In this document: positions 5,621 through 64,000 of the stretch, piece after piece
How positions within the stretch are numbered: the stretch's first letter is position 1
Layout: each line of letters begins with the position of its first letter
NCBI RefSeq assembly: GCF_044324875.1
Contig: NZ_CP172185.1
Reading direction: 5' to 3' (one strand)
DNA: 64,000 nucleotides
DNA from: Escherichia coli
GTDB taxonomy: Bacteria > Pseudomonadota > Gammaproteobacteria > Enterobacterales > Enterobacteriaceae
Made by a program: the position numbers and the translations under genes
The notes under the pieces: model-generated
The model's database searches: none
What the model was told of the DNA's origin: nothing
What the model saw: the letters and a program-made list of their open reading frames with translations, nothing else

Positions 5621-5655
5621 GCGCAAAAAGGCTGGTGACTAAAAAGTCACCAGCC
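5621..5655 (-). terminator. rplL-rpoB intergenic attenuator (partial intrinsic terminator)
   Basis: On - strand: GGCTGGTGACTTTTTAGTCACCAGCC hairpin followed by TTTTTGCGC, between rplL stop and rpoB start; matches the known attenuator position. Confidence 0.7.
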
Positions 5656-5694
5656 ATCAGCCTGATTTCTCAGGCTGCAACCGGAAGGGTTGGC

Positions 5695-10797: not shown

Positions 10798-10873
10798 TGG
10801 TGCTGATAGGCAGATTCGAACTGCCGACCTCACCCTTACCAAGGGTGCGCTCTACCAACTGAGCTATATCAGC
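10798..10873 (-). tRNA. thrT: tRNA-Thr
   Basis: Reverse complement reads GCTGATATAGCTCAGTTGGTAGAGCGCACCCTTGGTAAGGGTGAGGTCGGCAGTTCGAATCTGCCTATCAGCACCA. Confidence 0.95.
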
Positions 10874-10879
10874 ACATCT

Positions 10880-10954
<75 letters not shown>

Positions 10955-11070
10955 ATCCTGGAACTCGGCTACCTGATTTTCATTCTGCACTGAATATCGA
11001 GAGAAGCTCTCTTTATTCGAGCCGGTAAGCGAACTTATCGTCTCGGGCTACGCCATCGCGTGGCCGAAAT

Positions 11071-11155
<85 letters not shown>

Positions 11156-11163
11156 GGACTTGA

Positions 11164-11239
<76 letters not shown>

Positions 11240-14704: not shown

Positions 14705-14824
14705 ATGCCTGGCAGTTCCCTACTCTCGCATGGGGAGACCCCACACTACCATCGGCGCTACGGCGTTTCACTTCTGAGTTCGGCATGGGGTCAGGTGGGA
14801 CCACCGCGCTACGGCCGCCAGGCA
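14705..14824 (-). rRNA. rrfB: 5S ribosomal RNA
   Basis: Reverse complement begins TGCCTGGCGGCCGTAGCGCGGTGGTCCCACCTGACCCCATGCCGAACTCAGAAGTGAAACGCCGTAGCGCCGATGGTAGTGTGGGG... and ends ...GGGAACTGCCAGGCAT; 120 nt. Confidence 0.97.
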
Positions 14825-14922
14825 AATTCTGTTTTATCAACACGTCTCGTTATGACCTGTCGATTTAATCTGTATCAGGCTGAAAATCTTTCTCTCATCC
14901 GCCAAAACATCTTCGGCGTTGT

Positions 14923-17827
<2,905 letters not shown>

Positions 17828-18020
17828 TCACAACCCGAAGATGTTTCTTTCGATTCATCATCGTGTTGCGAAAATTTGAGAGACTCACGAACAACTTTCG
17901 TTGTTCAGTGTTTCAATTTTCAGCTTGATCCAGATTTTTAAAGAGCAAATATCTCAAACAAGACTTAACAGTCTGTTTTGAGATATTGAGGTCGGCGACT
18001 TTCACTCACAAACCAGCAAG

Positions 18021-18096
18021 TGGCGTCCCCTAGGGGATTCGAACCCCTGTTACCGCCGTGAAAGGGCGGTGTCCTGGGCCTCTAGACGAAGGGGAC
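18021..18096 (-). tRNA. gltT: tRNA-Glu in the 16S-23S spacer
   Basis: Reverse complement reads GTCCCCTTCGTCTAGAGGCCCAGGACACCGCCCTTTCACGGCGGTAACAGGGGTTCGAATCCCCTAGGGGACGCCA. Confidence 0.95.
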
Positions 18097-18181
18097 GTAT
18101 CAGTCTGCTTCGCAAGACGCCTTGCTTTTCACTTTCTATCAGACAATCTGTGTGAGCACTGCAAAGTACGCTTCTTTAAGG

Positions 18182-19723
<1,542 letters not shown>

Positions 19724-22789: not shown

Positions 22790-23020
22790 ATTACGCGATG
22801 ATGAGAACCAGATGCGACGTTAGCCGGCAGGTCTTCGGGCTTGGAGGGGTATCTAAGATACTAAGAGATGATGACTTCCCACCGGATGGCAGTGTCCGCA
22901 TAACGCAATCATCGCACCTTTCCTTACCGCTGCGCGTCAGCTCCAGATTCGCACTGGATTCCCTATTAACTCACAGGACCGGCAAGTGGATGCTACAGGT
23001 TGTAACAAGTTACTGTCCAG
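22790..23020 (-). promoter_or_regulatory. btuB 5' leader: adenosylcobalamin (B12) riboswitch
   Basis: Reverse strand contains GCCGGTCCTGTGAGTTAATAGGGAATCCAGTGCGAATCTGGAGCTGACGCGCAGCGGTAAGGAAAGGTGCGATGATTGCGTTATGCGGACACTGCCATCCGGTGGGAAGTCATCATCTC..., the btuB leader. Confidence 0.85.
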
Positions 23021-27988: not shown

Positions 27989-28104
27989 GAAACGGAGCGG
28001 CACCTCTTTTAACCCTTGAAGTCACTGCCCGTTTCGAGAGTTTCTCAACTCGAATAACTAAAGCCAACGTGAACTTTTGCGGATCTCCAGGATCCGCTTT
28101 TTTT
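27989..28104 (+). ncRNA. oxyS: OxyS small regulatory RNA, divergent from oxyR
   Basis: GAAACGGAGCGGCACCTCTTTTAACCCTTGAAGTCACTGCCCGTTTCGAGAGTTTCTCAACTCGAATAACTAAAGCCAACGTGAACTTTTGCGGATCTCCAGGATCCGCTTTTTTTT with 3' hairpin plus U-tract. Confidence 0.85.
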
Positions 28105-37814: not shown

Positions 37815-38666
37815 ATGTATCACGACGTCAGCTATCTGCTCTCCCGCCTGATCAACGGCCCGCTGTCCCTGCGCCAGATTTACTTTGCCAGCAGTAACGG
37901 CCCGGTGCCCGATCTTGCGTATCAGGTCGATTTTCCACGGCTGGAAATTGTGCTGGAAGGTGAGTTTGTTGATACCGGTGCTGGAGCAACGTTAGTTCCC
38001 GGCGATGTGCTGTACGTTCCTGCTGGTGGCTGGAATTTTCCACAATGGCAAGCCCCCGCCACTACCTTTAGCGTGCTGTTTGGCAAACAGCAACTCGGCT
38101 TCAGCGTCGTGCAATGGGATGGCAAACAATATCAAAATCTGGCGAAGCAACACGTCGCCCGGCGCGGCCCACGCATAGGTTCTTTTCTGCTACAAACGCT
38201 CAATGAAATGCAAATGCAGCCGCAGGAGCAGCAAACGGCAAGGCTTATCGTCGCCAGCCTGCTTAGCCACTGCCGCGATTTGCTCGGCAGCCAAATCCAG
38301 ACCGCCTCACGCAGCCAGGCACTATTTGAAGCTATTCGCGATTATATCGACGAACGCTATGCCTCCGCGCTTACCCGCGAATCTGTTGCACAGGCGTTTT
38401 ATATTTCACCAAATTACCTCTCGCACCTGTTTCAAAAAACGGGGGCCATTGGTTTTAACGAATACCTGAATCACACGCGACTGGAGCACGCTAAGACGTT
38501 ATTGAAAGGCTATGACCTGAAGGTAAAAGAAGTGGCGCACGCCTGCGGCTTTGTCGACAGCAACTACTTCTGCCGTCTGTTTCGTAAAAATACCGAACGC
38601 TCACCGTCGGAATATCGTCGGCAGTACCACAGCCAACTGACAGAAAAACCGACTACTCCAGAATGA
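37815..38666 (+). CDS. yijO: AraC/XylS-family transcriptional regulator
   Basis: ORF translation MYHDVSYLLSRLINGPLSLRQIYFASSNGPVPDLAYQVDFPRLEIVLEGEFVDTGAGATLVPGDVLYVPAGGWNFPQW..., 283 aa with C-terminal helix-turn-helix region (…CGFVDSNYFCRLFRKNTERSPSEYRRQ). Confidence 0.9.
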   Translation: MYHDVSYLLSRLINGPLSLRQIYFASSNGPVPDLAYQVDFPRLEIVLEGEFVDTGAGATLVPGDVLYVPAGGWNFPQWQAPATTFSVLFGKQQLGFSVVQWDGKQYQNLAKQHVARRGPRIGSFLLQTLNEMQMQPQEQQTARLIVASLLSHCRDLLGSQIQTASRSQALFEAIRDYIDERYASALTRESVAQAFYISPNYLSHLFQKTGAIGFNEYLNHTRLEHAKTLLKGYDLKVKEVAHACGFVDSNYFCRLFRKNTERSPSEYRRQYHSQLTEKPTTPE

Positions 38667-38994
38667 GATGGGTTTGCTGCGGCGCAGAAAGCACTTTGCG
38701 CACCGCGCTCATCACCCGCTGCGGCTCACGCAGGAATGCGTAGATGCTGCATTGCACATAGCGGCAATGGTCAAATCGCTCAGCACCGGCAAGCTCGATA
38801 TCCGTAATTAACAGAGCAACATCCGCCCGACGGATATCCTCGTCCGCTAAACGATTCTCCGTTCCCAGCGCGCCCTGAGTTTCAATGCTGACGCCCCGCT
38901 TCTCTAACAGGCACAACTTTTCCAGCCGTTCCGCCGCCATATAAGTATGCGCCACGCCGCTTACGCAGGCGGTTACTGCCACCAGGTATGCCAT
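38653..38994 (-). CDS. frwD: PTS fructose-like EIIB component
   Basis: ORF 38653..39057 contains MAYLVAVTACVSGVAHTYMAAERLEKLCLLEKRGVSIETQGALGTENRLADEDIRRADVALLITDIELAG...; start placed at MAYLVAV (113 codons). Confidence 0.9.
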   Translation of the reverse strand: MAYLVAVTACVSGVAHTYMAAERLEKLCLLEKRGVSIETQGALGTENRLADEDIRRADVALLITDIELAGAERFDHCRYVQCSIYAFLREPQRVMSAVRKVLSAPQQTHLILE

Positions 38995-38995
38995 T

Positions 38996-39874
38996 TTAAC
39001 CTCCCACGGTAACCTGAAATCCGGCCCGCTCTGCCATTTCACGCATCGTTGCCACATCGACTGACGACGGCGCAGGCACCTCTTTCATCGACCATGTTTT
39101 CCCCAGCAGGCGGTATTTCGGTTCGCCGTACTGATGAAACGGTAACAGATGGATCTGCCTGATATTCAGCGGGATCAGCACGTCCAGCGCCTGCTGCATA
39201 TTCTCCCGGCTGAGCGTGAAACCAGGGATCAGCGGTAAACGCGGGATCACGTTGACGCCCTCACTCACCAGCAAACGCAGATTCTCCAGCACGCGTGGCA
39301 GGTTCATCTTCACCACATCCCGCGCCTGAGTCGCGTCCATAATTTTTAAATCGAACAACACTTCATCGCACAATTTCGCCAGCGGTAACAGCTTGCTAGC
39401 TGGCGCGTCTCCGGCAGTTTCAATGGCGCATGACACGCCCCACAACCGCAGCCGCTGTAAAAAACGGGTAGCAAACTCCGCCTGCATTAACACTTCGCCG
39501 CCAGAAAGCGTGACGCCGCCGCCGGACGTGCGAAAGAAAATGTCATCTTTCATCACTTCCCGTTCCAGCGCGTCAAGGCTGATATCGCGGCCAATCCGTT
39601 CAAACGCCCCGGAGGGGCATTCATCCGCATCACGCAAACATTTCGCACAGTGCAGACATTTCGCCTCTCTGCGTACCGTCTGGATTTTGCCGGAGATCGA
39701 CTCCGGATTAGCACACCATGGGCAAAGATGCGGACAGCCTTTAAAAAAGACCACCGTACGAATGCCCTCGCCGTCATTCAGTGAATAACGCTGAATGTTG
39801 AAAATGCGCGCCACATCATTGCGGCGCGTTTCCACAACGTTACAGCTGATGCGCTGTCCGGCGGATGATGTCAT
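38996..39874 (-). CDS. pflC: Glycyl-radical enzyme activating protein (radical SAM), pyruvate formate-lyase 2 activase
   Basis: ORF 38996..39943 contains MTSSAGQRISCNVVETRRNDVARIFNIQRYSLNDGEGIRTVVFFKGCPHLCPWCANPESI... with the CxxxCxxC radical-SAM motif; start placed at MTSSAG (292 codons), overlapping the pflD 3' end. Confidence 0.9.
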   Translation of the reverse strand: MTSSAGQRISCNVVETRRNDVARIFNIQRYSLNDGEGIRTVVFFKGCPHLCPWCANPESISGKIQTVRREAKCLHCAKCLRDADECPSGAFERIGRDISLDALEREVMKDDIFFRTSGGGVTLSGGEVLMQAEFATRFLQRLRLWGVSCAIETAGDAPASKLLPLAKLCDEVLFDLKIMDATQARDVVKMNLPRVLENLRLLVSEGVNVIPRLPLIPGFTLSRENMQQALDVLIPLNIRQIHLLPFHQYGEPKYRLLGKTWSMKEVPAPSSVDVATMREMAERAGFQVTVGG

Positions 39875-42137
39875 CCTGGATCTCCTTCGACAATTCGACA
39901 AAGAAGGCGCTGTATCCGGCAACGCGCACCACCAGCCCGGCATAATCTTGTGGGCGCTGTTGCGCTTCCCGCAACGTGTCGGCGTTCACCACGTTAAACT
40001 GAATGTGTTGTAACTTAAGCTGGGTAAATGCCCGTAAGAAGTCGGCCAGTTTGCGTAATCCCGCTTCACCTTCCAGGGTCGCCGGAGTGAATTTCACGTT
40101 CAGCAACGTACCGTTAGACAGCAGCGTATTATCGAGCTTACTGACTGACTTCAGTACCGCCGTTGGCCCTTGTGCGTCCTGACCCAGCATAGGTGACAAG
40201 CCGCCGTCTGCCAGTTGTTCCCCGGCAAAACGACCGTCTGGCGTCGCGCCAACCACCGATCCCAACGGGACGTGAGCAGAAACGGTATACGATCCTGGCG
40301 TGAAGTAGCCGCCGCGCGGGTTCTGGTATTTTTCCACTTCTTTGCAGTAGTGGCGTAACAGTTCGGCGCTGATGTTATCCACCTCGTCGATATCGTTACC
40401 GTATTTCTCGAAGCGGTTAATTAAGCGAGCGCGGACTTTTTCGCCTTCTGGCGTTGCGAAGTTGGCTTTTAATACCGACAGCAATTCGTCAAAACTTAAA
40501 CGCTGTTGATCAAAAATCATCCCTTTCAACGCATGGAGAGAATCGCTCAGGTTGGCGATACCGATCCCCTGTACGCCGGAGAAGTTATAACGCGCGCCGC
40601 CATCGGTAATATCGCGACCTTTTTCCAGACAATCGCTGATAAAAGACGAGAGCAGCGGTACAGGTGCCCAGTCGCGATGGCCGATATCACAAATATTGCT
40701 GCCCTCTACCATCAGGGTGATGTAGTGGCTGATCTTGGCGCGGATCTGTTCCAGTAAACCTTCATAAGTCAGCGCAGCGTTACCTTCATTTTCATGCAGG
40801 CAGATTTCCATCACTTTCAGCAGGTTAAACATCGCGATGTCATGCAAGCCGTAGGTTCTGCCGGGAATAGATAATTCCACGCAGCCCACTACGGAATAGT
40901 CGCGCGCATCTTCCAGCGAAACGCCACGGTTGAGGAACGCTGGCACCACCACTTCATCGTTAAAGATTTGCGGAATACCGGTACCGAGGCGAATAGTTTC
41001 TGCGGTTTTCATCAGGAACGGCGTGTCGATCAAGGCGTTAGTGCGCACCCCCAGGTTCGGTTGCGGTAATTGCACACTTTGATAGGCGTCGAGACAGAGG
41101 AACGAAAGTACGTTCACCGCGCTACGTCCGTTCTCGGTTAACCCGCCGAGCAGTGCGGTATAGCCGGTCGGGAAACCGGCGAAATAACGCGCGCTACTGG
41201 TGGAGCGCAACAGCACGATGTCGTTGCATTTCACCCATAAAGATTCGAGCAGTTCTTTCAGGAACGCCGGATCTTCGCCCTGGGTTAATGATGCCTGATA
41301 GAACGGCAACATATACTGGTCGAAGCGCCCTAAAGACAGAGAACTGGCGTTGGATTCGTATTGCAGAATGATGTTCATGTACCAGAATAACTGGCACGCC
41401 TGCCAGAACGTCTGCGGCTTATGTTCGGCGTTATGGCGGGAGATCTCCGCAATAGTCAGCAGTTCTTCGCGACGCTGGGCATCTGTGCAGTTTGCCGCCA
41501 TCGTTTCCGCCAGTTCAGCGTAACGCAGAATGTGTTTCCGCGAGGCTTCCAGCAGTAACAGCGCTGCCTGATAAAAGTGATTCTCCGGCTGTTGCTGACA
41601 ATGTTGCTGCATCTGTGCCACCAGCTCACCCAGCCCGTGATTCAGCAGGCGCGGGTAATCAATAATAATGTGCCCCTGGCCTTTATCCGTCTGGTTGATG
41701 CTGAAAATCTGCGTGCTGGTCGCGGCTTTTACTTCATCCGTCATCTGCCCGTTAATGAAATCTTTCATCGAACGTTTTTCCCAGTACGGGAACAACTCTT
41801 CGCGGTAGATACGTTTATCTTCTTCGCTGATAGCAAAGCGGTCCTGCGGACGCGTCGGGAATTGATCCAGCTCTTTCAGCAGCCAGTAAGGGTCCATTTC
41901 CGGCGACATAATTCCGGCGCGCGGTTTCACCGTACGGTTACCGGCAATCAGTTCTTCATCACGAATCGAAATTTCAACATGTTCAAGGATATGCGCTGTT
42001 GCTTTCGCCCGGCGCAATATCACCGGTTCGCCTTCGGTTTGCCGATGGCTGGCGGTATAAAGCAGCGCCCGCTCCAGCGAGATTTCACGGGTATTGGCAA
42101 ACAGTGCAGTTTTGAGGCGAGAGATACGATTCGTCAT
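39840..42137 (-). CDS. pflD: Glycyl-radical enzyme (formate acetyltransferase 2 / PFL-like), physiological substrate unknown
   Basis: ORF translation MTNRISRLKTALFANTREISLERALLYTASHRQTEGEPVILRRAKATAHILEHVEISIRDEELIAGNRTVKPRAGIMSPEMDPYW...RVAGYSAFFVELSKEIQDDIIRRTAHQL, 765 aa with C-terminal glycyl-radical motif. Confidence 0.95.
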   Translation of the reverse strand: MTNRISRLKTALFANTREISLERALLYTASHRQTEGEPVILRRAKATAHILEHVEISIRDEELIAGNRTVKPRAGIMSPEMDPYWLLKELDQFPTRPQDRFAISEEDKRIYREELFPYWEKRSMKDFINGQMTDEVKAATSTQIFSINQTDKGQGHIIIDYPRLLNHGLGELVAQMQQHCQQQPENHFYQAALLLLEASRKHILRYAELAETMAANCTDAQRREELLTIAEISRHNAEHKPQTFWQACQLFWYMNIILQYESNASSLSLGRFDQYMLPFYQASLTQGEDPAFLKELLESLWVKCNDIVLLRSTSSARYFAGFPTGYTALLGGLTENGRSAVNVLSFLCLDAYQSVQLPQPNLGVRTNALIDTPFLMKTAETIRLGTGIPQIFNDEVVVPAFLNRGVSLEDARDYSVVGCVELSIPGRTYGLHDIAMFNLLKVMEICLHENEGNAALTYEGLLEQIRAKISHYITLMVEGSNICDIGHRDWAPVPLLSSFISDCLEKGRDITDGGARYNFSGVQGIGIANLSDSLHALKGMIFDQQRLSFDELLSVLKANFATPEGEKVRARLINRFEKYGNDIDEVDNISAELLRHYCKEVEKYQNPRGGYFTPGSYTVSAHVPLGSVVGATPDGRFAGEQLADGGLSPMLGQDAQGPTAVLKSVSKLDNTLLSNGTLLNVKFTPATLEGEAGLRKLADFLRAFTQLKLQHIQFNVVNADTLREAQQRPQDYAGLVVRVAGYSAFFVELSKEIQDDIIRRTAHQL

Positions 42138-42187
42138 GAGGAACTCCTGTGGGAAAGCGAACCCGCCCTTACGGGCGGGATAAGAAC

Positions 42188-42508
42188 TTAAGCGGTTTGT
42201 GCCAGGTGAGCTTCAATTTTGCTCATAATGGCATCAGCGCGTTTTACCGCGTCGCTGATGTTGACGCGCACGATGGTCTTGCCAGCAAAACGCTCTTCAA
42301 ACTTGATGCCGATATCTTTGGTCAGAATCACCATATCGGCGCTCGCCACGTCTTCCGCAGTCAGTTCATTTTCCAGACCAATCGAGCCCTGGGTTTCTAC
42401 TTTCACTTCCCAGCCTTTCGCTTTCGCGGCACTTTCCAGCGCCTCTGCCGCCATATAGGTATGGGCAACACCAGATGGACACGCGGTTACTGCAATAATT
42501 TTCGTCAT
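42188..42508 (-). CDS. frwB: PTS fructose-like EIIB component
   Basis: ORF 42188..42577 contains MTKIIAVTACPSGVAHTYMAAEALESAAKAKGWEVKVETQGSIGLENELTAEDVASADMVILTKDIGIKFEERF...; start placed at MTKIIAV (106 codons). Confidence 0.9.
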   Translation of the reverse strand: MTKIIAVTACPSGVAHTYMAAEALESAAKAKGWEVKVETQGSIGLENELTAEDVASADMVILTKDIGIKFEERFAGKTIVRVNISDAVKRADAIMSKIEAHLAQTA

Positions 42509-42518
42509 GGCTCGTTCC

Positions 42519-43598
42519 TCAATTAATTTCAAAATCCAAATCCAGGTCGTCTTCTTTTTCATCAGCCGAAGACCCATTTTTACGCGCCAGACTTTTCAGC
42601 ACGTTCACGCAGACTGCCGTCACAACCGCCCCGACAGCCACTGCTGCGATATAACCCAACTTACCTTCAACCACCGGCAGCACAATCAGACCACCCCAGC
42701 CTGCATAGCATTGCGCACCGACCAGCGCCGCAGTTACTGCACCACAAACTGAACCGACCATGATGGAAGGAATGACACGCAGCGGATCGGCTGCGGCGAA
42801 AGGAATCGCCCCTTCAGTAACGCCAACACACCCCATCACCAGCGCCGCTTTACCGGTTTCGCGCTCTTCTGCGGAGAAATTTTTACGACCAATCAGCGTC
42901 GCCAGCCCCATCCCCAGCGGCGGAACACAAATCCCCACGGCAGCAATGGCCACCACGGTATAAACACCCTGAGCAACGCAAATCAGCATGAAGGCATAGG
43001 CCACTTTGTTAACCGGACCGCCCATATCGAACGCCAGCATCAGACCCATGATCACCGCCAGCATAACAATGCTGCCCTGCTGCATCCCCTGAAGCCACTG
43101 AGTCAGGCTGTTGGTCAATGCCCCCACAGGCTCGCCCAGCCCCCACATCATGATGCCTGCGGTAATCAGTGTGCCGACGATCGGAATGATGAAGATTGGC
43201 ATCACCGAGCGCAGAACTTTATGCACCGGAATTTTCTTCAGGTAATGCACCACGATGCCGCCAATAATCCCGGCGATCAGCGCACCAAAGAAGCCCGCAC
43301 CAAAGCTGTTGCCGACCCAGGCACCGATAGCGCACGGGGCCAGCGCAGAGCGTTCTGCAATGGAATAACCAATGTAAGCAGCGAGGAAAGGCACCATCAG
43401 CGTCAAACCTGCAACGCCGATATCAAACAGTTTTTTCAGATTCGGATCGGCTACGGCATCCGGCACTGCGCCTTTGCCATACAACATGACGGAAACCGCC
43501 AGCAAAATACCGCCCGATACCACGAAGGGAATCATGTGTGAAACGCCCGTCATTAAGTGCTGACGGGTATTTTTCAGGATCTGCACCAACTCATTCAT
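42519..43598 (-). CDS. frwC: PTS fructose-like EIIC permease component
   Basis: ORF 42519..43619 contains MNELVQILKNTRQHLMTGVSHMIPFVVSGGILLAVSVMLYGKGAVPDAVADPNLKKLFDIGVAGLTLMVPFLAAYIGYSIAERS...; multi-pass hydrophobic; start placed at MNELVQ (359 codons). Confidence 0.92.
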   Translation of the reverse strand: MNELVQILKNTRQHLMTGVSHMIPFVVSGGILLAVSVMLYGKGAVPDAVADPNLKKLFDIGVAGLTLMVPFLAAYIGYSIAERSALAPCAIGAWVGNSFGAGFFGALIAGIIGGIVVHYLKKIPVHKVLRSVMPIFIIPIVGTLITAGIMMWGLGEPVGALTNSLTQWLQGMQQGSIVMLAVIMGLMLAFDMGGPVNKVAYAFMLICVAQGVYTVVAIAAVGICVPPLGMGLATLIGRKNFSAEERETGKAALVMGCVGVTEGAIPFAAADPLRVIPSIMVGSVCGAVTAALVGAQCYAGWGGLIVLPVVEGKLGYIAAVAVGAVVTAVCVNVLKSLARKNGSSADEKEDDLDLDFEIN

Positions 43599-43906
43599 AA
43601 GCTGCTCCCGGGCTTGCAAAAGCCCATGTCCATATTTTTGATGGAGGAAACAATAGGCAATCGCAGGCGGAGCAAACAGTGGATAAAAAGGCCATTTACT
43701 GGACTTTTGTAATATCAGTACAAAAATGCGATCCGCCTCATAACTTGCGGCAACCCGGAAGCATGCCGCAAAACGGCGTCTTGTGAGACGCGTCGCAAAT
43801 TGACGGTTACATTACATTTGTCCAGCTTTTGGCAGATTTGTCACATGGCAGGCCGTTGCCGTGCGCTCTTATCCTGTAAACAGAAAACCGTACCGGGAGA
43901 GAGGCA

Positions 43907-46408
43907 ATGGCCCTGATTGTGGAATTTATTTGTGAGCTACCTAACGGCGTACATGCGCGCCCGGCAAGCCACGTTGAAACGCTGTGTAATACTTTTTCAT
44001 CACAAATTGAGTGGCATAACCTGCGCACTGACCGCAAGGGCAACGCCAAAAGCGCCCTTGCGCTGATTGGCACCGATACGCTGGTGGGCGATAACTGCCA
44101 GTTACTGATTTCCGGGGCCGACGAACAGGAAGCGCACCAGCGTTTAAGCCAATGGCTGCGCGATGAATTCCCCCACTGCGACGCACCGCTGGCGGAAGTA
44201 AAATCTGACGAACTGGAACCACTGCCGGTTTCACTGACCAATCTGAATCCGCGAATTATCCGCGCCCGCACCGTGTGCAGCGGTAGCGCAGGTGGCATTC
44301 TGACGCCGATCTCTTCTTTAGATCTCAATGCGCTGGGTAATCTTCCTGCTGCCAAAGGCGTTGACGCCGAGCAATCCGCGCTGGAAAACGGCCTGACACT
44401 GGTGATGAAAAACATTGAATTTCGTCTGCTGGATAGCGACGGTGCTACCAGCGCGATACTGGAAGCTCACCGATCCCTGGCTGGCGATACTTCTTTACGT
44501 CAGCACTTACTGGCAGGCGTCAGCGAGGGATTAAGCTGTGCCGAAGCGATTGTCGCCAGTGCACACCACTTCTGCGAAGAGTTCGCCCGTTCCAGCAGCA
44601 GCTACCTGCAAGAACGTGCCCTGGACGTACGCGACGTCTGCTTCCAGTTACTCCAGCAAATCTACGGTGAGCAACGCTTCCCGGCACCGGGCAAACTGAC
44701 GCAGCCCGCCATTTGTATGGCTGATGAACTGACCCCCAGCCAGTTCCTCGAACTGGATAAAAATCACCTCAAAGGATTGTTGCTCAAAAGCGGCGGCACC
44801 ACCTCACATACGGTGATCCTTGCCCGTTCGTTCAACATTCCGACGCTGGTTGGTGTGGATATTGATGCCCTCACTCCGTGGCAGCATCAAACGATTTATA
44901 TCGACGGCAACGCTGGGGCGATTGTGGTTGAGCCAGGGGAAGCCGTAGCTCGTTATTATCAGCAGGAAGCCCGCGTACAGGACGCCCTGCGTGAGCAACA
45001 GCGTGTCTGGCTGACCCAACAAGCCCGTACCGCTGACGGTATCCGCATTGAAATTGCCGCTAACATCGCTCACTCCGTGGAAGCGCAGGCCGCATTCGGC
45101 AATGGTGCGGAAGGCGTTGGTTTATTCCGCACTGAAATGCTCTATATGGATCGCACCAGTGCACCGGGCGAAAGCGAGCTGTACAACATTTTTTGCCAGG
45201 CGCTGGAGTCCGCCAACGGACGCAGCATTATTGTGCGCACTATGGATATTGGCGGTGACAAACCCGTTGATTATCTGAACATTCCCGCAGAGGCAAACCC
45301 GTTCCTCGGTTATCGCGCCGTGCGTATTTATGAAGAGTACGCGTCGTTATTTACCACACAACTACGGTCGATTCTCCGTGCCTCCGCTCACGGCAGCCTG
45401 AAAATCATGATCCCGATGATCTCCTCAATGGAAGAGATCTTATGGGTAAAAGAAAAACTGGCAGAAGCCAAACAGCAACTACGTAACGAACACATTCCGT
45501 TTGATGAGAAGATCCAGCTCGGCATTATGCTGGAAGTGCCGTCGGTGATGTTCATCATCGATCAATGCTGCGAAGAGATTGATTTCTTTAGTATCGGTAG
45601 TAATGACCTGACGCAATATCTGCTGGCAGTGGATCGCGATAACGCTAAGGTTACTCGTCACTATAACAGCCTGAATCCAGCATTCTTGCGGGCGCTCGAT
45701 TACGCCGTGCAGGCGGTGCATCGCCAGGGCAAATGGATTGGTCTGTGCGGTGAACTGGGAGCGAAAGGTTCCGTGCTGCCATTGCTGGTCGGTTTAGGGC
45801 TGGATGAGCTGAGCATGAGCGCACCGTCAATTCCGGCGGCGAAAGCGCGGATGGCGCAACTTGATAGCCGTGAGTGCCGCCAGTTGCTCAACCAGGCAAT
45901 GGCCTGCCGTACTTCGCTGGAAGTGGAACACCTGCTGGCGCAATTCCGCATGACCCAACAAGACGCACCGCTGGTCACCGCCGAGTGCATCACACTGGAA
46001 AGCGACTGGCGCAGCAAAGAAGAAGTGCTCAAAGGCATGACCGATAACCTGCTGCTGGCGGGCCGCTGCCGCTATCCGCGTAAACTGGAAGCCGACTTGT
46101 GGGCGCGCGAGGCCGTTTTCTCTACCGGTCTGGGCTTTAGTTTTGCCATTCCCCACAGCAAATCGGAACATATTGAGCAATCCACCATCAGCGTAGCGCG
46201 TCTGCAAGCGCCGGTGCGCTGGGGCGATGATGAAGCGCAATTCATCATTATGTTAACGCTGAACAAACACGCTGCGGGCGATCAGCACATGCGCATTTTC
46301 TCGCGCCTCGCTCGCCGCATCATGCACGAAGAATTCCGTAACGCGCTGGTTAACGCCGCCTCTGCCGACGCTATCGCCAGCCTGCTGCAACATGAACTGG
46401 AACTGTAA
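43907..46408 (+). CDS. ptsA: PTS multiphosphoryl transfer protein (fused HPr / Enzyme I / EIIA-like domains)
   Basis: ORF translation [88 protein letters not shown]..., 833 aa. Confidence 0.94.
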
Positions 46409-46419
46409 AAGGAAACATC

Positions 46420-47082
46420 ATGGAACTGTATCTGGACACCGCTAACGTCGCAGAAGTCGAACGTCTGGCACGCATATTCCCGATTGCCGGGGTGACAACT
46501 AACCCGAGCATTATCGCTGCCAGCAAGGAGTCCATATGGGAAGTGCTACCGCGTCTGCAAAAAGCGATTGGTGATGAGGGCATTCTGTTTGCTCAGACCA
46601 TGAGCCGCGACGCGCAGGGGATGGTGGAAGAAGCGAAGCGCCTGCGCGACGCCATTCCGGGTATTGTGGTGAAAATCCCGGTGACTTCCGAAGGTCTGGC
46701 AGCAATTAAAATACTGAAAAAAGAGGGTATTACTACACTTGGCACCGCTGTATATAGCGCCGCACAAGGGTTATTAGCCGCACTGGCAGGGGCAAAATAC
46801 GTTGCTCCGTATGTTAACCGCGTAGATGCCCAGGGCGGAGACGGCATTCGTACGGTTCAGGAGCTGCAAGCGCTGTTAGAAATGCACGCACCAGAAAGCA
46901 TGGTGCTGGCGGCCAGCTTTAAAACGCCGCGTCAGGCGCTGGACTGTTTACTGGCAGGATGTGAATCCATCACCCTGCCCTTAGATGTAGCGCAACAAAT
47001 GCTCAACACCCCTGCGGTAGAGTCAGCTATAGAGAAGTTCGAACACGACTGGAATGCCGCATTTGGCACTACTCATCTCTAA
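46420..47082 (+). CDS. fsaB: Fructose-6-phosphate aldolase 2 (transaldolase-like)
   Basis: ORF translation [97 protein letters not shown]..., 220 aa. Confidence 0.95.
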
Positions 47083-47092
47083 AGGAGCAATT

Positions 47093-48196
47093 ATGGACCG
47101 TATTATTCAATCACCGGGTAAATACATCCAGGGCGCTGATGTGATTAATCGTCTGGGCGAATACCTGAAGCCGCTGGCAGAACGCTGGTTAGTGGTGGGT
47201 GACAAATTTGTTTTAGGTTTTGCTCAATCCACTGTCGAGAAAAGCTTTAAAGATGCTGGACTGGTAGTAGAAATTGCGCCGTTTGGCGGTGAATGTTCGC
47301 AAAATGAGATCGACCGTCTGCGTGGCATCGCGGAGACTGCGCAGTGTGGCGCAATTCTCGGTATCGGTGGCGGAAAAACTCTCGATACTGCCAAAGCACT
47401 GGCACATTTCATGGGTGTTCCGGTAGCGATCGCACCGACTATCGCCTCTACCGACGCACCGTGCAGCGCATTGTCTGTTATCTACACCGATGATGGTGAA
47501 TTTGACCGCTATCTGATGTTGCCAAATAACCCGAATATGGTCATTGTCGACACCAAAATCGTCGCTGGCGCACCTGCACGTCTGTTAGCGGCGGGTATCG
47601 GCGATGCGCTGGCAACCTGGTTTGAAGCACGCGCCTGTTCCCGTAGCGGCGCTACCACTATGGCGGGCGGCAAGTGTACCCAGGCGGCGCTGGCACTGGC
47701 AGAACTGTGCTACAACACTCTGCTGGAAGAAGGCGAAAAAGCGATGCTTGCCGCCGAACAGCATGTAGTGACTCCGGCGCTGGAGCGCGTGATTGAAGCG
47801 AACACCTATTTGAGCGGCGTTGGTTTTGAAAGCGGCGGGCTGGCGGCGGCTCACGCGGTGCATAACGGCCTGACCGCTATCCCGGACGCGCATCACTATT
47901 ACCACGGTGAAAAAGTGGCATTTGGTACGCTGACGCAGCTGGTTCTGGAAAATGCGCCGGTGGAGGAAATCGAAACCGTAGCTGCACTTAGCTATGCGGT
48001 AGGTTTGCCAATAACTCTCGCTCAACTGGATATTAAAGAAGATGTCCCGGCGAAAATGCGAATTGTGGCAGAAGCGGCATGTGCAGAAGGTGAAACCATC
48101 CACAACATGCCTGGCGGCGCGACGCCAGATCAGGTTTACGCTGCACTGCTGGTAGCCGACCAGTACGGTCAGCGTTTCCTGCAAGAGTGGGAATAA
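47093..48196 (+). CDS. gldA: Glycerol dehydrogenase
   Basis: ORF 47054..48196 contains [81 protein letters not shown]...; start placed at MDRIIQ (367 codons). Confidence 0.94.
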
Positions 48197-61647: not shown

Positions 61648-61899
<252 letters not shown>

Positions 61900-61903
61900 C
61901 TAA

Positions 61904-64000
<2,097 letters not shown>

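Follow-up and report, generated by a model that had tools for sequence, protein, structure and literature searches.

The region considered here lies in a stretch of 64,000 nucleotides of the Escherichia coli contig NZ_CP172185.1 (assembly GCF_044324875.1), analysed as a whole and referred to below as the window. It comprises the frw-pfl gene cluster and its immediate neighbours, in the order yijO, frwD, pflC, pflD, frwB and frwC, followed by the divergent ptsA, fsaB and gldA. This is the gene order found in RefSeq for both the best-matching genome and K-12 MG1655. The genes frwD, pflC, pflD, frwB and frwC are on the minus strand, and ptsA, fsaB and gldA on the plus strand. Together they code for a sugar phosphotransferase system (PTS), a glycyl radical enzyme with its activase, an aldolase and a dehydrogenase, and the region very probably serves the anaerobic utilisation of 1,5-anhydro-D-mannitol (AM) in E. 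coli. The cluster is ordinary for this species and already known, its substrate having been published in 2024.

The K-12 proteins were aligned to the window by tblastn, and the nine genes from yijO to gldA were compared with those of K-12 codon by codon. Every protein of the cluster is full length, aligns without gaps or internal stops and is 98.2–100% identical to its K-12 counterpart, and all eight cluster proteins exceed their NCBIfam equivalog or family cut-offs. The initial annotation of this DNA, which had placed an intact frw-pfl cluster at 38653–46408, was thus right as to both the integrity and the identity of the genes. Its count of seven genes was not, as its own title names eight, of which six lie inside that interval, with fsaB and gldA beyond its end. 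The overlapping stop and start codons that it described apply on the same strand to pflD and pflC only (35 nt), while the remaining junctions are spacers of 1, 10, 10, 11 and 50 nt. The codon differences from K-12 (227 synonymous against 29 non-synonymous) show natural allelic variation under purifying selection, which leaves the label “cryptic”, also taken from that annotation, unsupported. When the window is set against the K-12 locus (b3947–b3953 and b3945–b3946), the genes, their order and lengths, the junctions and the catalytic and phosphorelay residues are all equal, and only allelic differences are left; the nine substitutions in PflD spare its GCVE and RVAGY motifs. On the far side of the cluster, yijO (plus strand) and frwD (minus strand) converge with a 14-nt overlap (38653–38666), and this pair is listed among the convergent “excludon” candidates in ExcludonFinder (PMC12288877).

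A megablast search with a 7.7-kb stretch of the cluster found it in 5425 of 5426 complete E. coli genomes, with at least 80% coverage in 5393. The DNA of the cluster is about 97.4% identical to K-12 and 98.9% identical to the best of these genomes. The representatives of other Escherichia species reach at most 94.8% identity, and the rest of the window is 99.1–99.3% identical to E. coli. An origin in a different Escherichia species, considered in view of the figure of 98.9%, is rejected on these grounds. Across three window stretches tested, the best match among the complete genomes had 98.9–99.3% identity at most. The window therefore stems from an E. coli lineage to which none of the 5,426 complete genomes is nearly identical. 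One of these genomes matched none of the three stretches.

The central enzyme of the cluster is PflD (39840–42137, minus strand), a glycyl radical enzyme of 765 amino acids with the Pfam domains PFL-like (residues 1–626) and Gly_radical (645–747). It scores 1724 bits against PDB entry 8YJO, to which, as to K-12 PflD at the same genomic position, it is identical at 756 of 765 residues. Its sequence carries the motifs G418-C419-V420-E421 and R738-V-A-G741-Y, the first of which aligns with the GCVE of the glycerol dehydratase 1R8W. As judged from the motif, a single Cys with a Glu is the signature of dehydratase/eliminase glycyl radical enzymes and not the Cys-Cys of pyruvate formate-lyase (PFL). 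The profile scores point the same way: PflD reaches 1346 bits with TIGR01774 (cut-off 678), but only 120.9 bits with the model of true PFL, TIGR01255, far under its cut-off of 994 bits. Matches to solved structures do so as well, with E-values of 1e-195 for glycerol dehydratase 1R8W against 4e-33 for PFL 1H16. The name “formate C-acetyltransferase” thus does not suit the protein, given that GCVE takes the place of CC, that the match to 1R8W far exceeds that to 1H16 and that the TIGR01255 score lies under the cut-off. The depositors of 8YJO titled it “Probable dehydratase PflD”, and the entries for YbiW (8YJN and 8ID7) are likewise titled “probable dehydratase”. The fold family TIGR01774, the Cys-x-Glu motif, the glycyl loop and the type of activase are shared with the B12-independent glycerol dehydratase of Clostridium butyricum (1R8W), CutC, HypD and propanediol dehydratase. 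PflD differs from these 1,2-eliminating enzymes in that its leaving group would be the ring oxygen of a phosphorylated anhydro-sugar, so that a ring is opened and neither water nor an amine is lost.

The activase of PflD is encoded by pflC (38996–39874, minus strand; 292 amino acids), which scores 628 bits with NF007483 (cut-off 326) and 261 bits with the glycyl-radical activase family TIGR02494 (cut-off 174). It carries the radical S-adenosylmethionine motif C47-x3-C51-x2-C54. Past this motif there is a single further group of cysteines, C73-x2-C76-x2-C79-x6-C86 (residues 73–86); two ferredoxin-like CX2CX2CX3C motifs are usual in this class of activases. The open reading frame delimited by program reaches 23 codons further upstream than the annotated start (39943 against 39874). 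In RefSeq and in NCBIfam release 20 (June 2026), PflD is still called formate C-acetyltransferase and PflC its activating enzyme, and the annotation of this pair lags behind the literature.

The transport genes code for a complete system of the PTS fructose (Fru) family. FrwC (42519–43598, minus strand; 359 amino acids) is the EIIC membrane permease of this family (NF007787, 719.6 bits against a cut-off of 426; 99.4% identical to K-12). There are two EIIB(Fru-like) proteins, both with the active-site Cys10 in place. FrwB (42188–42508, minus strand; 106 amino acids; NF007783, 210 bits against a cut-off of 135; 100% identical to K-12) has it within VTAC10PSGVAHT, and FrwD (38653–38994, minus strand; 113 amino acids; NF007747 equivalog, 216.7 bits against a cut-off of 153; 98.2% identical to K-12) within VTAC10VSGVAHT. 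The multiphosphoryl-transfer protein PtsA (43907–46408, plus strand; 833 amino acids) fuses HPr, Enzyme I and EIIA(Fru) in one polypeptide, as seen from its Pfam domains PTS-HPr (7–84), PEP-utilisers_N, PEP-utilizers, PEP-utilizers_C and PTS_EIIA_2 (690–829). The phosphorelay in it is complete, with the histidine motifs GVH16ARPA, GGTTSH301 and, in EIIA, AIPH750. Downstream of ptsA, fsaB (46420–47082, plus strand) codes for fructose-6-phosphate aldolase 2 (220 amino acids), which belongs to the class I fructose-6-phosphate aldolases (FSA) with 353 bits for TIGR00875 (cut-off 246) and has kept the Schiff-base Lys85 within VVKIPVT. FSA accepts hydroxyacetone as an aldol donor. The last gene, gldA (47093–48196, plus strand; 367 amino acids; 99.2% identical to K-12), scores 749.4 bits with the equivalog NF047954 (cut-off 700), which NCBIfam names bifunctional L-1,2-propanediol/glycerol dehydrogenase.

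For the distribution of the cluster, species-representative genomes were scanned with the window PflD aligned to 8ID0, a PDB relative with 61% identity. This returned 80 pflD loci, from Escherichia, Citrobacter, Enterobacter, Klebsiella, Yersinia, Rahnella, Serratia, Hafnia, Edwardsiella, Gilliamella, Necropsobacter and Vibrio, with PflD identities of 75–99%. The nine window proteins were then searched by tblastn in these loci, and the counts were restricted to the 62 loci with full 10-kb flanks. A yijO-like AraC gene lies less than 10 kb from pflD in all 62. Next come pflC (60/62), frwB, frwD and ptsA (57/62 each), frwC (56/62) and fsaB (52/62), and finally gldA, with 34/62, whose linkage is limited to the Escherichia-Citrobacter-Enterobacter group. 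The conserved pairing stressed by the initial annotation hence stands for the PTS and the radical enzyme and, for the most part, for the aldolase.

Some of the loci depart from this plan. Those without a PTS (L033, L035, L036, L037 and L051 from Kluyvera, and L081 from Edwardsiella piscicida) also have neither fsaB nor gldA within 10 kb, and in Kluyvera the pflDC module adjoins hypB/D/E and a gene for an fhlA-like sigma-54 activator. A gene for a PhyH-family Fe(II)/2-oxoglutarate dioxygenase-like protein adjoins the yijO-like gene in Klebsiella, Yersinia, Kluyvera, Vibrio and one metagenome-assembled genome (L048, 14498–15265 on the minus strand; also L045–47, L049–51, L056, L058, L059, L033, L035, L037, L082 and L083). 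Its product has about 255 amino acids, with 67–91% identity among the copies. The E. coli window lacks this gene.

The two divergent gene sets are separated by the frwC-ptsA spacer, which is 308 bp long in the window and 301–310 bp in most of 70 other loci. When the 71 distinct spacers were aligned, the strongly conserved blocks included two copies of one element of about 38 bp, each oriented toward its own gene. The frwC-side copy, ATTACAAAAGTCCAGTAAATGGCCTTTTTATCCACTGT, lies at 43676–43713 on the minus strand and the ptsA-side copy, ATTACATTTGTCCAGCTTTTGGCAGATTTGTCACATGG, at 43811–43848 on the plus strand; both are predicted YijO sites, and they are called operators below. An exact motif, GTCCAGNNNNTGGC, was rejected as too strict, being matched on both strands in 5 of the 71 regions, and the consensus of the aligned blocks was used instead. 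The 64-kb window holds exactly two copies of the operator core, TTACAWWWRTCCAGYWWWTGGC, where 0 are expected. Over the 80 loci, the promoter regions hold 147 of 158 fuzzy operator matches although they make up 26.7 kb of 1.65 Mb, and shuffled loci gave 5. The operator motif was not found at the paralogous ybiW-fsaA locus.

A CRP-type site lies directly distal to each operator. The first, TGCGATCCGCCTCATA (43727–43742), is conserved across genera and is the exact CRP site reported at the ptsA/frwC peak from chromatin immunoprecipitation in enterotoxigenic E. coli H10407 (PMC4287617). The second, TGTGAGACGCGTCGCA (43782–43797), has one mismatch to TGTGA-N6-TCACA, and in the alignment its half-sites are about 90% conserved, with a spacer that is not. 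In the ptsA-side operator, the half next to the promoter, TGGCAGATTTGTCACA (43830–43845), fits the CRP consensus as well, with 2 mismatches, whereas its counterpart on the frwC side does not.

Between frwB and pflD, in the 50-nt spacer, a scan for terminator-like elements returned a GC hairpin (CCCGCCC-GTAA-GGGCGGG, followed by TTCGCTTTCC) at 42162–42179 on the minus strand. Its stem is a perfect 7 bp, and the centroid structure of the fold is the hairpin alone. The 70-nt context is not unusually stable overall (z = -1.1), so that the case for the hairpin is based on its recurrence across species and not on its energy. Indeed, of 72 distinct frwB-pflD spacers of other species, 48 have a perfect hairpin of at least 6 bp in this place, with differing stem sequences, where shuffles would lead one to expect 5.2. 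A T-run follows the hairpin in Enterobacter, and in some Citrobacter a REP-like element takes its place. The hairpin is probably a conserved partial terminator or mRNA-stability element dividing the transporter genes from the enzyme genes.

As to the function of the cluster, the initial annotation had suspected an anaerobic catabolism of a sugar or sugar alcohol joining PTS, glycyl radical enzyme, aldolase and GldA. It had also regarded the substrate of PflD and Frw as unestablished, a view that by its own account a published substrate and pathway would overturn. The suspicion was right and the view on the substrate outdated, as can be seen from the summary in a 2025 review (PMC12441222) of the work of Ma et al. 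(J Am Chem Soc 146:26187, 2024, pmid 39283600), which two further papers cite as well. According to this summary, gut bacteria degrade 1,5-anhydroglucitol and 1,5-anhydromannitol anaerobically, and both pathways start with PTS phosphorylation to the 6-phosphate. E. coli YbiW then cleaves 1,5-anhydroglucitol-6-phosphate (AG6P) and PflD 1,5-anhydromannitol-6-phosphate (AM6P), each giving 1-deoxyfructose-6-phosphate in a reaction that requires the glycyl radical, and the pathways sustain the growth of E. coli and other gut bacteria (PMC12441222).

For the genes of the window, the AM pathway would run as follows. PtsA would relay phosphate from phosphoenolpyruvate via its fused Enzyme I, HPr and EIIA(Fru) domains to FrwB and FrwD, and AM would enter via FrwC to become AM6P. 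The PTS step itself is published, and we assign it to the Frw components because they are linked with pflD in 56–57 of the 62 loci. PflC would install the glycyl radical on Gly741 of PflD, upon which Cys419 would abstract a hydrogen atom and, with Glu421 as putative general base, cleavage of C1–O5 would open the pyranose ring and give 1-deoxyfructose-6-phosphate. This reaction too is published, and the roles proposed for the three residues follow from the GCVE and RVAGY motifs. FsaB would split 1-deoxyfructose-6-phosphate into glyceraldehyde-3-phosphate and hydroxyacetone, judging from the use of hydroxyacetone as donor by FSA, and GldA could reduce hydroxyacetone to 1,2-propanediol with NADH, which would balance the redox state. 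In the abstract of the original study, FsaA or FsaB reportedly splits 1-deoxyfructose-6-phosphate into these two products and GldA leads to 1,2-propanediol; substrate-bound crystal structures are said to be described there too. Because D-mannitol is C2-symmetric, 1,5-anhydro-D-mannitol and 2,6-anhydro-D-mannitol are one and the same compound, a fructopyranose lacking the anomeric hydroxyl. Such an identity would account for both the fructose family of the PTS and the phosphorylation of the exocyclic CH2OH as “6-phosphate”.

The nearest parallel in E. coli is the ybiW-ybiY/fsaA locus, described here from K-12. It has a glycyl radical enzyme, an activase and an aldolase side by side, as in the pflD cluster, and the two share the GCxE and RVAGY motifs and the published product 1-deoxyfructose-6-phosphate. 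PflD and YbiW are 37% identical, PflC and YbiY 36%, and FsaB and FsaA 70%. Unlike the pflD cluster, the ybiW locus has no dedicated PTS, gldA or regulator of the yijO type, and the substrate of YbiW is the C2 epimer of that of PflD.

The candidate regulator of the cluster is YijO (37815–38666, plus strand; 283 amino acids), which is 100% identical to the K-12 protein. Pfam HTH_18 (192–270) and HTH_AraC (233–269) place a double helix-turn-helix at its C-terminus, as in the AraC/XylS family, and in 2022 it was listed among the transcription factors of unknown function. The PTS-less Kluyvera and Edwardsiella loci have a single copy of the operator, about 110 bp upstream of pflD. The operator thus travels with pflDC and the AraC-family gene and not with the PTS, which makes YijO the obvious candidate for binding it. 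From this pattern, YijO is probably the regulator of the cluster and the binder of both operators. The two divergent operons would then share a 308-bp control region with two outward-facing 38-bp operators, putatively bound by YijO and each backed by a CRP site. Such an arrangement resembles araBAD, rhaBAD and melAB, with an AraC-family gene beside the operon, a long operator with half-sites repeated about 21 bp apart near a weak -10, and a CRP site just upstream. It differs from them in that two units of operator and CRP site face outward from one 308-bp spacer. As far as could be checked, this paired layout is new, though Ma et al. (2024) may have dealt with the regulator already.

Upstream of the dioxygenase-like gene, Yersinia and Vibrio have a third operator copy. 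A broader model, which we put forward tentatively and give somewhat less than an even chance, is that YijO is an AM-responsive activator of a small regulon, acting through the operator ATTACA-N4-TCCAG-N4-TGGC-N2-TTTTGTC together with CRP from the quasi-symmetric divergent region. In Klebsiella, Yersinia, Kluyvera and Vibrio this regulon would include the dioxygenase-like gene, possibly as an O2-dependent way of using the same anhydro-sugar under conditions that disable the oxygen-sensitive glycyl radical enzyme.

Several observations weigh against this account of the pathway and its control. The aldolase step, the GldA step and the role of Frw as the AM transporter rest on a two-sentence summary in a review, on what the abstract of the original study reportedly states and on inference, and an older paper, as cited in PMC6643234, ascribes PtsA to anaerobic fructose catabolism. 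The linkage of gldA in only 34 of the 62 loci has been given above; in addition, the Klebsiella, Yersinia and Kluyvera loci are without fsaB, and five loci (four from Kluyvera and one from Edwardsiella piscicida) consist of pflDC and a yijO-like gene with no PTS nearby. On the side of control, binding by CRP at the ptsA promoter may overlap with the putative YijO site. The frwC-ptsA spacer contains no sigma-70 consensus promoter, and the region has fewer such sites than its shuffles, which is consistent with dependence on an activator. Nor does this spacer contain an FNR box (TTGAT-N4-ATCAA with at most 2 mismatches), which leaves anaerobic control, if there is any, unexplained.

Among the alternatives to AM utilisation, the one that survives best accepts the published chemistry but sees in AM only a laboratory stand-in for the natural gut substrate, which would be a related 1,5-anhydro- or 1-deoxy-hexitol or hexose taken up via Frw. 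The review itself terms 1,5-anhydromannitol a “non-physiological polyol”, in a mammalian context (PMC12441222), the Frw PTS is of the fructose family, and the variant loci that add the dioxygenase-like gene or drop the PTS suggest some flexibility of input. We nevertheless consider this unlikely, as the summary assigns PflD to AM6P and YbiW to AG6P, and the 75–99% identity of PflD from Escherichia to Vibrio argues for one defined substrate. It is harder still to believe that the database names are right, with PflD a second pyruvate (or 2-ketoacid) formate-lyase and Frw a minor anaerobic fructose PTS. The names do persist in RefSeq and NCBIfam, and the report cited in PMC6643234 places PtsA in a putative PTS for anaerobic fructose catabolism, but the single Cys and Glu in place of the Cys-Cys dyad, the TIGR01255 score, the much greater closeness to glycerol dehydratase, the name chosen by the PDB depositors and AM6P as the substrate reported in PMC12441222 all contradict a formate-lyase. 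That the cluster is a cryptic relic, intact by chance and with no current function, is scarcely credible and already effectively refuted by the conservation statistics: it was historically termed cryptic, its spacer has no promoter-like sigma-70 sites, and fsaB and gldA are not induced on dihydroxyacetone according to the literature, but the excess of synonymous codon changes, the coverage in 5393 E. coli genomes and the synteny and control-region motifs kept across several orders all speak against it.

With the Rfam gathering thresholds, no structured RNA was found at 37.8–48.2 kb. Elsewhere in the window there are matches to the “P26” small RNA (5629–5690, minus strand), StyR-44 within an rrn operon (17835–17943, minus strand), the btuB cobalamin riboswitch (22809–22998, minus strand), OxyS (27989–28098, plus strand) and the L31 ribosomal leader (61867–61919, minus strand). 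The window also has rRNAs at 14707–19723 and five tRNAs (10801–11239 and 18024–18096). All of these features outside the cluster are expected for this chromosomal region.

With the question of the PflD/Frw substrate answered in 2024, the cluster no longer matters as a target for discovery. The names “formate C-acetyltransferase” and “fructose-like PTS” in RefSeq and NCBIfam are misleading and due for an update. As for control, the logic by which YijO, the paired operators and CRP respond to an inducer appears uncharacterised and can now be tested directly from the coordinates given here. This could aid the engineering of the pathway, for instance for 1,2-propanediol production, or the study of anhydro-sugar use by gut Enterobacteriaceae.

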